From Candidatus Nomurabacteria bacterium (GTDB taxonomy: Bacteria > Patescibacteriota > Minisyncoccia > Phycocordibacterales > UBA918), in assembly GCA_023898565.1 (NCBI GenBank), contig CP060228.1:624594-688593 (forward strand): 64,000 bases of DNA, written 5' to 3'. Position numbers and translations under genes: made by a program. Within the stretch, counting starts at the first letter, position 1. Each line of letters opens with the position of its first letter. A model generated the notes under the pieces. That model saw only the letters and a list, made by a program, of their open reading frames with translations. It did no database searches and was not told the DNA's origin. Of this stretch, positions 2,724-13,219 are shown piece after piece.

Positions 2724-3974
2724 TTATTTAAGTTTTGAACGGCGAAGGAAAGCTGGTACTGCACCCCAGTCATCGTCATCGTCATCGTCTGCTGCATCAA
2801 TTGGCTTTGGATCTCGTTTTGGAGCAGGAGTAGGCTCTGCTTTGGTTGCGGGTGTAGGAGCAACGTCTACTTTCGGCGCCTCCCGCTTTGGAAGGGAATT
2901 AAAGATGCGGCCACGAACAGGTTCGCTGTCTTCCTCTTCCTTTTCTTCTTCTCGTGCTCGTGGCTCAGGAGCGCTTGGAGCACGTCGCGCAATACTATAA
3001 CTACCGCTACCGTCTGATTCTTCAGGGAATCCGGTTGCGATCACCGTAACCTTGAGCTCATTCTTTTTTAGTTTTTCATCCTTGATAGCACCAAAAATAA
3101 CGCGAGCTTGTGGATCGATTGATTCAGTAATTACACGAGCAGCATCTTGAATTTCGAGCATTCCTAGGTCATCTCCGCCAGCGATAGCAAAGAGAACACC
3201 CTTTGCTCCAGTGATTGACACTTCAAGGAGAGGAGAGTTGATAGCCGCGCGAGCAGCTTCTTCAGCTCGCTTTTCTCCAGATGATACACCGACGCCCATC
3301 AGTGCTGATCCGGCATTTTCCATAACAGAACGAATGTCAGCAAAGTCAACGTTGATGATACCTGGCATGGTGATGAGGTCTGAGATGCCTTCTACCGCTT
3401 GCTTTAGAATGTTGTCGCACTGCTCAAACGCATTTCTCACTGTAGTCTCCTTATCAACAATCGCTAGCAAACGATCGTTTGGAATAATGATAAGTGCGTC
3501 TACTTCTTGCTTTAGCTCTTCAATACCTTGAAGGGCAAGACGCATACGCTCTTGTCCTTCAAACAGAAATGGTTTGGTGACTACGCCAACAGTGAGTGCT
3601 CCGCTGTCGCGAGCAATCTTGGCGACTACGGGTGCTGCTCCGGTACCGGTGCCGCCACCCATACCCCCAGTAATGAAGATCATGTCTGAACCCTTGATTG
3701 AGTTATTGATTTCCTCACGGGTTTCTTCCGCTGCACGCCGCCCCATGTCTGGATTTCCGCCAGCGCCGAGGCCACGAGTCAAATTCTTGCCGATGTGAAT
3801 TTTTTTCTTAGCAAGCGAATGATGCAGGTCCTGAGCGTCGCTGTTTATTGCAATAAATTCAACACCTTTCACTTTCGATGCCACCATGTGATTCACGGCG
3901 TTGCCGCCTGAGCCGCCGACACCAACTACGCGAATGCGTGCGAATGACTCTACGTCTGATCTAATTTGTTCCAT
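2724..3974 (-). CDS. ftsZ: cell division GTPase FtsZ with an acidic poly-Asp C-terminal tail
   Basis: [15 protein letters not shown] and the tubulin signature [13 protein letters not shown]. It lies downstream of ftsA. Confidence 0.95.
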
Positions 3975-10741: not shown

Positions 10742-10908
10742 TGTATTTCTTTGTTATTTCCGACGACACGCGTCCGCGCAACTGTTGCTCGTGGCCATGT
10801 CCATGAGCGCGGGGTTAAACGTGTGTCGCTAGAAGCTATTAATTACCTAAAAGGTGTGCAAAATATAGCAGAACGTAGGGAATTGTCGAGGGTGCGTGAG
10901 TCAGAAAG

Positions 10909-11001
10909 CCGAGCCGCCTCCAGTTTTTCACACGCTCCGATGTTTGCCGAGTAGCTTGGGCGCACATTCTCCGCGGACGCTCAAAACTGGAGGCGGCTCG
11001 G
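10909..11001. repeat. conserved ~93-nt hairpin element, copy A: a 19-bp perfect outer stem enclosing a conserved core
   Basis: Stem CCGAGCCGCCTCCAGTTTT / AAAACTGGAGGCGGCTCGG. The core begins TCACACGCTCCGATGTTT and ends CTCCGCGGACGCTCA, identical to copy B at 12365-12453 while the outer stems differ. Confidence 0.6.
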
Positions 11002-11008
11002 TTCGGAC

Positions 11009-11040
11009 AAAAAAGAGCGCGATACTTGCGTATCGCGCTC
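11009..11040 (-). terminator. intrinsic terminator (minus strand) of the 11065..11436 unit
   Basis: Minus sense: GAGCGCGATAC-GCAA-GTATCGCGCTC followed by TTTTTTG. Confidence 0.65.
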
Positions 11041-11064
11041 AAAGCAGAAGAACAGATGAAGTTT

Positions 11065-11436
11065 TTAGACGAGCTCAAATCGGGTCGGTTCGGACCGCCG
11101 CAAGTTGCGGCGATTGCATCGCTGATTGCGACTGTTGGATTCGTGCGCACGCTTTGTCCAGTGGTGGAGCGTGTTGCGTTCGATAGACCAAAGGCGAGCC
11201 TCAAGCCCGTTTTCGATCATGCGAACTTCCTTCTTTCGAGCACAGCTTGAGCCGCTGAAGCTCGGTTCACGAACTTCCTTGCCGGCCACCACTTCAGTCG
11301 TGATGGCCTCGACAGGCTTGGCCGGGTGACGCTTCTTTTTGAGCGTCACCCGAGCCCGATTTTTCGGATTCAGGCGGAGAACTTCCGGCATGTGTTGCTG
11401 AAGGGCGGGGTCAGTGCTGTAGAAGGTGGTGTACAT
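11065..11436 (-). CDS. hypothetical basic protein (123 aa) with a consensus promoter and SD
   Basis: Lys/Arg-rich, no recognisable domain. It is preceded on the minus strand by AGGAGA-5nt-ATG and a TTGACA-16-TATAAT promoter. An antisense 65-aa ORF (11056-11250, +) overlaps it. Confidence 0.45.
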   Translation of the reverse strand: MYTTFYSTDPALQQHMPEVLRLNPKNRARVTLKKKRHPAKPVEAITTEVVAGKEVREPSFSGSSCARKKEVRMIENGLEARLWSIERNTLHHWTKRAHESNSRNQRCNRRNLRRSEPTRFELV

Positions 11437-11481
11437 CTTCGTCTCCTGTGGTATGAGCTATGGAACAAATTGATTTTTATT

Positions 11482-11509
11482 ATTATACACAAAATTTACA
11501 TATTGTCAA
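11482..11509 (-). promoter_or_regulatory. consensus sigma70 promoter (TTGACA-16 nt-TATAAT) on the minus strand
   Basis: Minus-sense TTGACAATATGTAAATTTTGTGTATAAT. TSS predicted ~11475, about 40 nt upstream of the ATG at 11436. Confidence 0.6.
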
Positions 11510-11542
11510 TACTAATATATAAAAATAGTGATGTTTTGCATA

Positions 11543-11574
11543 GAAAAAGCCCTGCACACGTGGTGTGCAGGGCT
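11543..11574 (-). terminator. intrinsic terminator (minus strand) ending the GC-rich island transcript
   Basis: Minus sense: AGCCCTGCACAC-C-ACGTGTGCAGGGCT followed by TTTTT. Confidence 0.6.
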
Positions 11575-11579
11575 GGTCC

Positions 11580-12340
11580 AGGTTTCTCTCATCAGGCAGC
11601 TAGGGCCATGTCATGGAGCCGTCCTCCAGTTTGGTCCCTGCATCAAACAGCAGGGCGTCATTTTCTGTCACTGCGCCGACGATGGCGCTTATCCGGAATA
11701 GAACTTGCTCATGGAGACTCACTCCTGTTGGCGGGTTCACGGGGAGGCGCTCCCGCGGCGAGACTCATCTAGAGTTCGCGGCGGGAGCAGGATTGACGGC
11801 CGATTGCCGAATTGCCGGGCCTATGAGAAGGCGCGGCAGCGGCGAGCGAGGCCGTCAGAGGTAGCACATGGCGCACACTTCATCCGTGCGCCATATACCA
11901 GGCCGGACACCGGGGCTAGGAAGCGCCGGCGACCTTGGTAGCGGTGGCGGTGGTCAGCAGGTCGAAAAAAACGTTCTCTTGTGCGCCTTGCGGCGGATCG
12001 GTCAGATGCTTCATGGTGCTTCTCCTTTTCCCTTGCGGGAGTTGTATGCTCGCGCTGGCCATCGTGGCGAGTGCGAGCGGTTGAAAACCTAAACTATTTT
12101 GTTCTGAAAGATCTCATACCCTACGGGGCGGGGAAGTACACATTGTGGCGCAAACTGCAGTCTGATTAGTCAAACTCATGCAGGACTAGAGAAGTCTCTC
12201 TAGAAAACATGGGTCGACAGCCGAGACGTAGTCTCAAGCACAATATGTAGTTCTACCACGCGCCCCGTAGGGGGTTTCGTGTTCGCGCGAGTAATACTCA
12301 GCGAGCGAAAACTTATAAAAGGATAGCATACATAAATTAT
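11580..12340 (-). other. GC-rich (~62% GC) ORF-poor island of ~760 nt, bracketed on the minus strand by a promoter-like site (~12320-12350) and the 11543-11574 terminator; candidate structured RNA or micro-ORF locus
   Basis: Only short overlapping Arg-rich ORFs on either strand. Many local hairpins (CTAGAGA-AGTC-TCTCTAG; GAGAC-GUA-GTCTC). A 12-bp long-range helix CCCTACGGGGCG (12118-12129) pairs with CGCCCCGTAGGG (12262-12273). Flanking DNA is ~47% GC. Confidence 0.35.
11906..12014 (-). CDS. 36-aa micro-ORF with a strong SD (MKHLTDPPQGAQENVFFDLLTTATATKVAGAS), below the ORF-track size cutoff
   Basis: Minus-sense AAGGAGAAGCACC-ATG and a TAG stop; it lies inside the GC island. Confidence 0.2.
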
Positions 12341-12364
12341 TTGTCAAGGGTTTTGTGTCTTATC

Positions 12365-12453
12365 CTGGCGCGGCTAATTCCTCACACGCTCCGATGTTTT
12401 CAGAGACACTCTGGCACTTTCTCCCCGCGGACGCTCAGAATTAGCCGCGCCAG
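12365..12453. repeat. conserved ~89-nt hairpin element, copy B: a 16-bp perfect outer stem with the same core ends as copy A
   Basis: Stem CTGGCGCGGCTAATTC / GAATTAGCCGCGCCAG. The core ends TCACACGCTCCGATGTTT and CTCCCCGCGGACGCTCA match copy A; the variable middle forms the hairpin CAGAG-ACA-CTCTG. Confidence 0.6.
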
Positions 12454-12526
12454 AGGGACTACCACGCATAGTCGCTGCTTCTCTGACTGTCGCACGCAGT
12501 GGGTCTGGTTTGCGCAGGTTGCTGGT

Positions 12527-12569
12527 CGGGCAGAAATTTTGGCAGGCGGAGCCCCAAAATTTCCGCCCG
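12527..12569 (+). promoter_or_regulatory. 16-bp hairpin in the leader of the MBL-hydrolase gene
   Basis: CGGGCAGAAATTTTGG-CAGGCGGAGCC-CCAAAATTTCCGCCCG. A second small hairpin, CGGTA-TACT-TACCG, ends 3 nt before the ATG at 12599. Confidence 0.4.
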
Positions 12570-12598
12570 CGGCACCTTTACGGTATACTTACCGCATT

Positions 12599-13219
12599 AT
12601 GGTCATTACATATCACGGTGGTCAGTGTTTTAAAGTTTCGTTTGGTGACACGACCTTGGCTTTTAACCCAATTTCCAAAAAATCCAAACTTAGTCCAGTT
12701 AAGTTCGGTTCAGACGCTGCCTTTGTGTCGCTCTGGCACGAGGATTTTAATGGTGTAGATCAAGTAGCCCATGGTGCTAAGCAGCCGTTTGTGGTTGATG
12801 GTCCGGGTGAATACGAAATCGGCCAAGTAGTAGCGCATGGTTTTGGCGTCAAAACTATGTATGATAAGGAAGAAGCGTACAATACGATTTTTCAAGTAAA
12901 GCTCGAGGATATCAATATGGTATTTCTTGGTGCGCTCAGCGAGCCAGAGATTGACCCAAAGATTCTGAGTGAATTTGGTGATATTGATATTCTTTTTGTC
13001 CCAATTGGCGGCGGTGATGTGCTTGAGGCGCCACAGGCGTCTAAGCTTGGTGTGAAGCTCGAAGCGAAGCTGGTGATTCCAATGCACTACAATGACACAG
13101 CGCTTAAAGCTTTTCTTAAGGAAGAAAGCAAGGACGGATTAAAGCCAGTAGATAAACTCACTGTCAAAAAGAAGGACGTTCAGGCAATGTCTGGTGATGT
13201 GGTGGTATTAAAGGCATAG
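12599..13219 (+). CDS. metal-dependent hydrolase, MBL (beta-lactamase) fold
   Basis: MVITYHGGQCFKVSFGDTTLAFNP...DILFVPIGG resembles the UPF0173/YtkL-like MBL-fold family. The ORF-track start at 12341 is a TTG extension across the repeat element, so I trimmed it to the ATG at 12599. Confidence 0.7.
   Translation: MVITYHGGQCFKVSFGDTTLAFNPISKKSKLSPVKFGSDAAFVSLWHEDFNGVDQVAHGAKQPFVVDGPGEYEIGQVVAHGFGVKTMYDKEEAYNTIFQVKLEDINMVFLGALSEPEIDPKILSEFGDIDILFVPIGGGDVLEAPQASKLGVKLEAKLVIPMHYNDTALKAFLKEESKDGLKPVDKLTVKKKDVQAMSGDVVVLKA

Follow-up and report, generated by a model that had tools for sequence, protein, structure and literature searches.

A self-contained GC-rich transcription unit between rpsA and an MBL-fold hydrolase gene in a Candidatus Nomurabacteria genome, possibly an enlarged micro-ORF RNA of Paceibacteria

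The subject of this work is a GC-rich island between rpsA and the gene of an MBL-fold hydrolase in a Candidatus Nomurabacteria bacterium. It lies in a stretch of 64,000 nucleotides (nt; contig CP060228.1 of assembly GCA_023898565.1, positions 624,594 to 688,593 of the forward strand), which was analysed as a whole and is called the window hereafter; all coordinates refer to it. Judged from its sequence, the GC-rich stretch 11544-12347 on the minus strand is a real, unannotated and self-contained promoter-to-terminator unit. The island is tentatively read as an autonomous gene, namely an enlarged copy of a fast-evolving RNA with very short open reading frames (micro-ORFs) that occupies the rpsA/MBL spacer of many Paceibacteria in the Candidate Phyla Radiation (CPR). 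From its anatomy and from the comparison with relatives we infer a ribosome-sensing mechanism. We give the whole reading somewhat less than an even chance. A micro-ORF locus or an undescribed RNA was among the options raised in a preliminary description of the sequence, and this option gained support, because ORFs led by Shine-Dalgarno (SD) sequences and a pseudoknot recur in relatives at the same place and in the same orientation.

The fraction of guanine plus cytosine (GC) is 0.561 over 11543-12350, 0.623 over 11600-12000 and 0.513 in the 5' third of the island (12016-12313). The reference values are 0.478 for the whole 64-kb window, 0.478 for rpsA and 0.443 for the MBL gene. The earlier figure of about 62% GC is right for the 3' two-thirds of the island (0.623) and too high for the entire island (0.561). 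The longest ORF lying wholly within the island has 83 amino acids (aa), is located on the plus strand, is Arg-rich and has no Pfam match, in line with the earlier statement that there is only Arg-rich junk on the plus strand and no ORF above about 80 aa. A spurious 148-aa plus-strand ORF (11326-11772), antisense to the neighbouring gene ORF123, reaches into the 3' end of the island. The TTGACA-like -35 site that had been placed at about 12345-12350 on the minus strand was located at 12347-12342 with a -10 element downstream. This promoter, TTGACA-16-TATCCT with an upstream TG, agrees with the consensus at 10 of 12 positions, and transcription of the unit probably starts near 12313. At the other end, the terminator proposed at 11543-11574 was confirmed: the minus strand has a 12-bp stem and a T-run there. 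The island is thus bracketed on this strand as had been described, from 12347 to 11544. In the surrounding 2 kb, there are four promoter-like sites (1.4 expected) and seven terminator-like sites (2.4 expected). The unit is composed of the following features, given in the direction of transcription; related loci are designated by L and a number.

12320..12347, minus strand: promoter, with the -35 TTGACA at 12347-12342, a 16-nt spacer and the extended -10 TGCTATCCT at 12328-12320.
12284..12307, minus strand: 5'-terminal hairpin, CGCUCGCUGAGUAUUACUCGCGCG, whose CGCUCGC start is common to the L014 and L015 units.
12119..12272, minus strand: 154-nt rod-like hairpin closed by a perfect 12-bp helix.
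12029..12078, minus strand: two small hairpins before sORF1, at 12078-12048 and, with a GCAA tetraloop, at 12041-12029.
11916..12027, minus strand: SD sequence (AAGGAG within 12027-12015) and the first short ORF, sORF1, at 12014-11916, MKHLTDPPQGAQENVFFDLLTTATATKVAGAS, 32 aa and a stop codon.
11749..11899, minus strand: GC-rich spacer with three strong hairpins, H1 at 11899-11860, H2 at 11857-11794 and H3 at 11788-11749.
11689..11725, minus strand: SD/anti-SD hairpin GGAG-UGAGU-CUCC at 11725-11713 and mini-ORF a, AUG to UAA at 11712-11689, MSKFYSG-stop.
11656..11691, minus strand: H-type pseudoknot, which starts at the stop codon of mini-ORF a.
11636..11655, minus strand: hairpin Hx, CCCUGC-UGUUUGAU-GCAGGG.
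11600..11627, minus strand: SD/anti-SD hairpin GGAG-GACGG-CUCC at 11627-11615 and mini-ORF b, AUG ACA UGG CCC UAG at 11614-11600, MTWP-stop.
11544..11574, minus strand: intrinsic terminator, AGCCCUGCACAC-CAC-GUGUGCAGGGCU followed by UUUUU, with a 12-bp G+C-rich stem (11574..11548).

Searches with the MBL protein yielded 54 loci from genomes and 80 from metagenomes, almost exclusively of Paceibacteria/'Parcubacteria'. The arrangement of rpsA on the minus strand and the MBL gene on the plus strand was found in almost all of them (45 genome and about 70 metagenome loci). The order of rpsA, island and MBL gene had been proposed as a check in related genomes, and the flanks indeed proved syntenic in well over 100 Paceibacteria loci. 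In the 45 genome loci, the spacer between the two genes can be as short as 190 nt or as long as 2776 nt. Across the loci, blastn showed conservation of the 150-nt rpsA leader and the promoter box only. In at least 14 species, these otherwise unalignable spacers contain a recurring unit that adjoins the MBL gene in the same orientation. Besides the window, it was read in L011, L012, L014, L015, L016, L019, L037, L056, L057, L076, L106, L114 and L146. Units were recognised by the same locus and strand, a promoter of the form TTGACAAAT..TGCTAnnnT, a short ORF (sORF) with an XPPX motif, an M-x-W mini-ORF and/or a stop-codon pseudoknot, and a terminator. The general plan consists of the promoter TTGACAAATAtTTTAnnTGtGCTAnnnT, a structured leader of 50-300 nt that often starts with ..CGCUCGC.., the Pro-Pro sORF, G+C-rich hairpins, one or two mini-ORFs and the terminator. 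The box TTGACAAATAtTTTA..TGCTAnnnT heads the units of L012, L014, L015, L057, L076, L114 and L146. The window copy has every one of the recognised elements, plus a lineage-specific 154-nt rod. Its transcript would be 770 nt long, compared with 180-500 nt in relatives. In L012, the unit stands between two protein genes, each with its own promoter and terminator. Therefore, it behaves as an independent gene.

The first short ORFs of the units have a strong SD sequence and an X-P-P-X motif a few residues after the start. The motif of sORF1 is D-P-P, and D/G/A-P-P sORFs are found at the equivalent position in L014, L015, L016, L019, L076 and L056. The peptides are as follows.

Window: MKHLTDPPQGAQENVFFDLL...
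L001: MHLTDPPLSAQE...
L016: MQTHDPPHAAQTKET
L015: MKDPPVQLAPIDFYFANLD
L076: MKDPPVSVTSVDIE
L014: MSTGPPGATAPVFVNDDNLD...
L019: MNIAHAPPAPTAQVDVVTWN
L056: ...NDPHPVPTSID...
L037 and L106: MKPPEQ and MKPPK, respectively.

The sORF1 copies of the window and of L001 differ by a one-codon in-frame deletion and by two synonymous changes (CAU>CAC and GAU>GAC) in the conserved 5' part. Beyond this part, the L001 copy diverges through indels and its frame stays open for 35 codons. Across eight species, the two Pro codons of the sORF vary at the third position only (CCG/CCU/CCC). The in-frame indel and the synonymous changes show the signatures of a putative coding frame. In addition, sORF1 was called as a gene on L008, and the protein library holds a 97%-identical 32-aa entry (P0011). 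All of this, together with the good SD sequence, the peptide-level similarity across the eight species and the unit's own promoter and terminator, would suit an ordinary small-protein mRNA. The products would then be the peptides, chiefly the 32-aa DPP peptide, and the hairpins and the pseudoknot would only stabilise or tune the message, with nothing being sensed. However, the peptides of 14-35 aa share only about 6-8 positions, four-codon ORFs such as MTWP are unlikely to yield functional products, HMMER, Pfam and NCBIfam gave no family for them, and the pseudoknot described below is kept at the nucleotide level with covariation. An ordinary mRNA is therefore regarded as an unlikely, albeit serious, explanation.

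The two mini-ORF modules of the window, a and b, are direct-repeat paralogues (repeat family D4). Both are preceded by GGAG-N5-CUCC-AUG, in which the SD sequence pairs over 4 bp with an anti-SD sequence abutting the start codon. In 66 kb of spacers, there were four instances of the strict pattern GGAG-N-CUCC-AUG on the minus (rpsA) strand and none on the plus strand. Mini-ORF b, which contains Trp, lies about 25 nt before the terminator. M-x-W mini-ORFs were found at the equivalent place in at least nine species, and their types are as follows.

MTWP: window and L015
MCWP: L011
MKWP: L146
MTWYAE: L014
MNWYPE: L012
MKWYSE: L076
MTWKSV and MVWIEM: L114
MTWKSIIGF: L057

In the 85 distinct spacers, Trp occupies codon 3 in 8 of the 30 SD-led ORFs of 3-10 codons on the rpsA strand, against about 0.5 expected (1/61; binomial p 2e-8, with shared ancestry left uncorrected). 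In the plus-strand control, it does so in 1 of 15 SD-led mini-ORFs. The distance from SD to AUG is 7-9 nt in every unit, including the window starts at 12014, 11712 and 11614, and the second codon of the mini-ORFs varies freely while UGG stays fixed. A further frame of 46 codons, initiated by GUG at 11740-11600 on the minus strand, (M)NPPTGVSLHEQVLFRISAIVGAVTENDALLFDAGTKLEDGSMTWP-stop, crosses the pseudoknot and ends within mini-ORF b. It has an N-terminal Pro-Pro and a C-terminal TWP, as do the single sORFs of L019 (..APPAP..VVTWN-stop) and L146 (..ETPPMKWP-stop). A single longer short ORF may have been ancestral, with the mini-ORFs as its remnants or as internal starts in it.

The pseudoknot at the stop codon of mini-ORF a is composed of the stem S1, GCGCC/GGCGC (11688-11684 / 11677-11673), and the stem S2, CGUC/GACG (11681-11678 / 11659-11656), with the A-rich linker AGUGACAGAAAAU (11672-11660). 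The shared form of the linker is YAACAUAAAU, and the 3-6 nt after it are complementary to the 3' end of the loop and form S2. The covariance model R2 scored 56.4 bits at window 11652-11725 (E 4e-10) and matched only seven equivalent sites in the 863 kb of window and loci (E 1e-8 to 1e-12). These seven copies belong to six species (window, L012, L014, L016, L076 and L114, the last with two). The S2 sequences are CGUC/GACG in the window, CUACA/UGUAG in L014 and L076, GACCU/AGGUC in L016, and UCAC/GUGA and GGGU/ACCC in L114. Each loop pairs with its own tail over 4.4 bp on average, as against a mean of 2.6 bp when loops and tails are crossed; a sum as high as the observed one came up in 37 of 20000 permutations. 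By this comparison, the predicted helix S2 is covarying. The conservation of the pseudoknot at the nucleotide level with covariation points to a role at the RNA level.

The 776-nt minus-strand RNA folds at -330.8 kcal/mol, compared with -259.7 +/- 8.3 for dinucleotide shuffles (z -8.56). However, the plus strand of the island folds equally well (z -9.08). Therefore, the folding signal reflects inverted repeats at the DNA level and carries no information on the strand. A purely non-coding structured small RNA (sRNA) would account for the fold (z -8.6), for the SD boxes paired in hairpins, for the covarying pseudoknot and for nucleotides flanking AUG that are conserved beyond the needs of an SD sequence. 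The short ORFs and GGAG boxes would then be by-products of GC-rich GGAG/CUCC stems, and AUGAcuUGG would be an RNA motif. It is quite improbable, given the Pro codons varying at the third position only, the in-frame indel of sORF1, the SD-AUG spacing of 7-9 nt throughout and the fixed UGG beside a free second codon; no Rfam family matches it either.

The following mechanism is proposed for the translation-sensing micro-ORF RNA. The island RNA would be translated, and the choice among local folds would depend on the occupancy of the short frames by ribosomes. A ribosome slowed at Pro-Pro or at the Trp codon, or while terminating beside the pseudoknot or near the terminator, would alter the SD hairpins, the pseudoknot and the pairings between Hx and the terminator. 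Hx contains in its arms a second copy of the core sequence of the final terminator stem, which makes an alternative Hx/terminator pairing conceivable. The CCCUGCAC/GUGCAGGG stem of the window terminator is also the terminator stem of the L014 unit. The transcript would thereby act as a small RNA sensing the ribosome or the state of translation, like a leader-peptide attenuator turned into a stand-alone unit or a dual-function sRNA. Its output could be its own stability or termination, possibly with read-through towards ORF123 and rpsA. Since the downstream gene has its own consensus promoter, the island may work like an attenuator and is not called one. A more far-reaching proposal sees in the island the first member of a new class of CPR RNAs that sense translation as stand-alone units. 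In these, the Trp and Pro codons of the mini-ORFs and the stop codons abutting the pseudoknot would report the status of the ribosome, of elongation factor P (EF-P) or of aminoacyl-tRNA. Together with a 97-nt motif and the rpsA leader (see below), they would tune expression around rpsA in organisms whose supply of amino acids comes from a host. This extension is doubtful.

Several observations weigh against the translation-sensing reading. In blastn, the body of the island had no alignable homologue in any relative beyond the recurring modules. The single discrete and conserved structured RNA of about 770 nt that the preliminary description had envisaged could therefore not be upheld. Recognisable modules are present in only about 14 of the 85 distinct spacers. 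In the HMMER search, the 32-aa sORF1 peptide matched nothing but its strain variant and two proteins of low complexity, with no relatives beyond the species. In Fisher tests against the plus-strand control, neither Trp at codon 3 (p 0.23) nor Pro-Pro (7/43 vs 2/27, p 0.47) is significant, because the counts are small. A constraint on RNA only would explain equally well why nucleotides around the mini-ORFs are conserved (CGCCyAUGAmnUGG, GAAUAAGCGCC). Six differences between the window and L002 in the rod region break pairs or fall in loops. The putative alternative Hx/terminator pairing relies on a repeat of just 6-7 nt, CCCUGC/GCAGGG. Finally, ORF123 is an orphan, which found only its own cluster among 5.8 billion proteins and has no Pfam or NCBIfam match, and it has its own perfect promoter. 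Therefore, cis-attenuation by the island is not needed.

The rod and the hairpins H1-H3 supply most of the extra length and GC of the window copy. The 12-bp helix that had been described as closing a 5' domain of about 150 nt does exist (CCCUACGGGGCG/CGCCCCGUAGGG, arms 12272-12261 / 12130-12119) and closes 154 nt, but it is confined to the species and its strain changes are non-compensatory. The rod is present in the window, L001 and L002 and is missing from every other relative. The region of H1-H3 is the strain-variable part of the island and was found only in its own species. Since both are confined to the species, strain changes in the rod region break pairs or fall in loops, and H1 and the interior of H2 are replaced between strains, we treat the rod and H1-H3 as probable lineage-specific padding or expansion and not as the core of a large ribozyme-like RNA. 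A scan of metagenomes with the MBL protein for closer relatives found none above 83% identity. Two candidate identities of the rod were rejected. It is not a 6S RNA, as it has no central bubble and no Rfam match and is not conserved. For a miniature inverted-repeat transposable element, further copies were sought and not found within the window or any compared locus.

Near-identical copies of the island (97.6-100%) are present on eight metagenome contigs of the same species. The contig L001 of assembly GCA_020428845.1 matches most of the island at 97-99% identity, the exception being a segment of about 117 nt (11975-11858) in which the end of sORF1 and H1 are exchanged for unrelated sequence. 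The replacement still yields an ORF end plus a hairpin. The interior of H2 (11840-11825) is replaced in L002, L008 and L010 with a net insertion of 8 nt, and L002, L003, L006 and L008 have a 6-nt indel at 11586. Such local segment swaps between near-identical strains point to putative hot spots of recombination or slippage at hairpins. Replacement of segments between near-identical strains is also what a degraded foreign insert or junk would show, that is, a hairpin-rich, fast-decaying spacer in a recombination hot spot, whether transcribed or silent, with no selected function. The GC content 8-14 points above that of the genome, the bulk of the island lacking a homologue in relatives, the highly variable spacer length and two diverged copies of the 97-nt motif flanking the island at a distance of 1454 nt fit this explanation as well. 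However, at least 14 species have the modules in the same order and orientation, the R2 matches are significant and locus-specific, the promoter and terminator are intact in a streamlined genome of 0.95 Mb, and there is no similarity to phages, plasmids or, beyond about 22 nt, Paracoccaceae contigs. Junk or an insert is thus decidedly improbable.

No positive evidence was obtained for the foreign insert that had been considered earlier. The island had no match to plasmid and phage collections in blastn, its ORFs and ORF123 have no Pfam domain, and the one contig apparently carrying a foreign gene at this locus is a chimera. That contig, L007 (ERZ28655574), matches the window only over 10994-11964, and beyond this an ABM-monooxygenase gene is seemingly fused to the 3' half of the island, which suggested a gene cassette polymorphism. 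This candidate was rejected. Over its first 407 nt, L007 consists of Paracoccaceae/Maritimibacter DNA, with 92.6% identity to L068, a Paracoccaceae contig from the same study. The ABM protein cluster is that of Maritimibacter/Paracoccaceae, and its genuine members end in ...TATREKDFFRMV / ...LMTTATREKDFFRMV..., not in ...TATATKVAGAS / ...LMTTATATKVAGAS. The join falls in a stretch of about 21-22 nt (GACCTGATGACCACCGCCACC, window 11964-11943) that is common to both organisms, and apart from these roughly 22 nt the island shares nothing with the co-occurring high-GC Paracoccaceae contigs. The foreign 407 nt, the wrong protein end and the join in a shared stretch indicate that L007 is a chimeric metagenome scaffold. 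It has given rise to an artificial fusion protein in public protein collections (P0004).

We also considered whether the island is a divergent form of a known RNA, such as tmRNA, RNase P RNA, 6S RNA, SRP RNA or a riboswitch or leader. The island would resemble one in being GC-rich and structured within an AT-richer genome, and the pseudoknot architecture recalls the preQ1-I or SAM-II aptamers. A frame overlapping mini-ORF b, AUG GCC CUA GCU GCC UGA UGA at 11609-11592 on the minus strand, encodes M-A-L-A-A followed by two stops and recalls the end of the tmRNA tag. Relatives do not keep this frame, and the island lacks a tRNA-like domain; therefore, the likeness is judged a coincidence. At the gathering score, Rfam found only tRNAs in the whole window, and ARAGORN found nine tRNAs and no tmRNA. 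In a permissive Rfam scan (E<=10) of 11400-12650, only chance-level matches to unrelated families appeared, and the models of tmRNA, RNase P, 6S, SRP, PreQ1 and SAM-II gave none. The failure of the preliminary description to find RNase P, SRP or tmRNA features in the island was thus reproduced by independent searches. The large ornate RNAs (OLE, GOLLD, ROOL, HEARO and raiA) had no covariance-model match in the window. Rfam searches of 18 related loci (11 loci, plus seven relatives at E<=5) gave no known RNA and no riboswitch. A match of the trpB motif in L016 (37 bits) was discarded, as it aligns only to two tandem terminators. As far as Rfam and ARAGORN can tell, the probability of a known RNA is very close to nil.

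On the minus strand, the order of elements around the translation-sensing candidate is MBL gene, hairpin motif 'A', island, ORF123 promoter, ORF123, terminator, motif 'B', rpsA promoter and leader, and rpsA. The MBL-fold hydrolase gene (12599-13219, plus strand, Pfam Lactamase_B_3) is divergent, and rpsA lies at 10741-9635 on the minus strand. Both flanking genes had been named correctly, but an orphan 123-aa gene with its own promoter stands between island and rpsA. This gene, ORF123 (11436-11065, minus strand; USN88508.1 / H6780_03375 of the Candidatus Nomurabacteria metagenome-assembled genome), has a perfect TTGACA-16-TATAAT promoter at 11509-11482 and its own terminator at 11040-11015. 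At the C-terminus, its SRNQRCNRRNLRR..F is similar to the RRQRNNGYRKCNKRETIRR..F tail of a group of acidic proteins, 170-215 aa long and with an NRFG..DDGTDLGF N-terminus, which occupy the equivalent spacer in L012, L013 and L014. The spacer ORFs of L026 and L057 have a different, basic tail (R.RAP.WQ...). From these likenesses, ORF123 and the spacer proteins look like a fast-evolving gene family.

A hairpin motif of about 97 nt was also noticed, in which a long outer stem encloses a conserved core (UGAGCGUCCGYGGRG ... AACAUCGGAGCGUGUGA). Its copies are as follows.

Window 12362-12460 ('A') and 10908-11004 ('B'), minus strand: perfect outer stems of 16 and 19 bp.
L013 4630-4727
L021 4258-4355
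L020 5554-5650
L088 2222-2318
L083 3102-3208
L073 2866-2962 (minus strand) and 2965-3062 (plus strand)
L101 2925-3021 and 416-515

The sequence of the outer stem differs in every copy. Over 12 copies, compensatory changes are seen in 16 of the 17 outer pairs, and 92.6% of the cells are paired; none of 500 shuffles attained the score. The island and ORF123 lie between the two copies of the window, which are 1454 nt apart. These two copies are only 70% alike and have unrelated stems. Therefore, they are no fresh duplication. In relatives, the motif lies immediately upstream of the rpsA promoter, and L073 has two adjacent copies on opposite strands. It has no match in Rfam or in viral contigs. 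The 5' leader of rpsA (window 10742-10895, minus strand) is conserved in nearly all relatives and contains the invariant long-range helix CGACACACG/CGCGUGUCG. In its inner 6-bp helix, five of six pairs covary (CCGCGC/GCGCGG, CUCUGU/ACAGAG and CUGCGU/ACGCAG), and a hairpin of variable length is inserted between the two helices. The leader has no Rfam match at the gathering score and is a candidate S1 autoregulatory leader. On the other side, a 16-bp hairpin (12527-12569, CGGGCAGAAATTTTGG...CCAAAATTTCCGCCCG) precedes the MBL start by about 30 nt and adjoins a conserved GTATAC(T) box. Most relatives have a hairpin with a different stem sequence there, often with a CGAAG/CAAAG loop (L011, L013, L014, L016, L025, L040 and L043).

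The genomes of CPR bacteria (Patescibacteria) are tiny and almost free of non-coding DNA. Therefore, a 0.8-kb unit with a promoter, a terminator and no conventional ORF is worth annotating. To our knowledge, very few regulatory RNAs or small proteins are known from these bacteria. The locus offers three testable RNA elements outside Rfam, namely the module of mini-ORF and stop-codon pseudoknot, the 97-nt hairpin motif and the rpsA leader, as well as a family of 14-35-aa peptides with a Pro-Pro motif. If translation sensing is true, the unit would show how an obligate symbiont without amino-acid synthesis monitors its supply. If nothing is sensed, it is still a clear case of fast turnover of a locus with short functional modules kept. 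Nothing in these findings overturns current understanding, and the modules and the two neighbouring covarying RNA elements can be tested directly.

Among known systems, leader-peptide attenuators include trpL, thrL and tnaC, and the Pro-codon leaders mgtL/mgtP of Salmonella. Like these, the island has SD-led, very short ORFs in a structured RNA with Trp and Pro-Pro as candidate 'diagnostic' codons, an intrinsic terminator within 15-40 nt of the last mini-ORF, and repeated segments that would allow alternative pairings. Unlike them, it combines a promoter of its own with a strong terminator, and its downstream neighbour, which has a separate consensus promoter, lies outside the unit. Moreover, it is not linked to a biosynthetic or transport operon, it has one Trp codon instead of a run, and the only candidate antiterminator is the Hx repeat. 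The island shares with tmRNA, RNase P RNA and 6S RNA a GC-rich, ORF-poor and highly structured sequence of several hundred nt, but it has no tRNA-like domain, no P4 and no central-bubble rod. Its pseudoknot resembles small H-type pseudoknots (preQ1-I, SAM-II and luteovirus frameshift) in the 5-bp G+C-rich S1, the 5' strand of S2 at the 3' end of the loop and the A-rich third loop of 9-13 nt followed by a covarying S2 of 3-6 bp. In contrast to preQ1-I and SAM-II, there is no Rfam match, and the neighbours, rpsA, an MBL-fold hydrolase and orphan genes, suggest no riboswitch. In contrast to frameshift pseudoknots, there is no slippery heptamer and S1 begins at the first base after the stop codon. 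In Sinorhizobium, the attenuator RNA rnTrpL from a small ORF with Trp codons is reported to act in trans, and its 14-aa leader peptide peTrpL to take part in ribosomal gene regulation (bioRxiv 10.1101/606483; PMC7298713). The island has no sequence or structure similarity to dual-function and attenuator-derived sRNAs such as SgrS/SgrT, RNAIII/hld and rnTrpL, and its 770 nt exceed the typical sRNA length. Nevertheless, like them, it would be a stand-alone, terminated small transcript encoding one or more peptides. Overall, the island is not explained by the catalogued families and is best described as a clade-restricted form of the micro-ORF/leader-peptide RNA theme.

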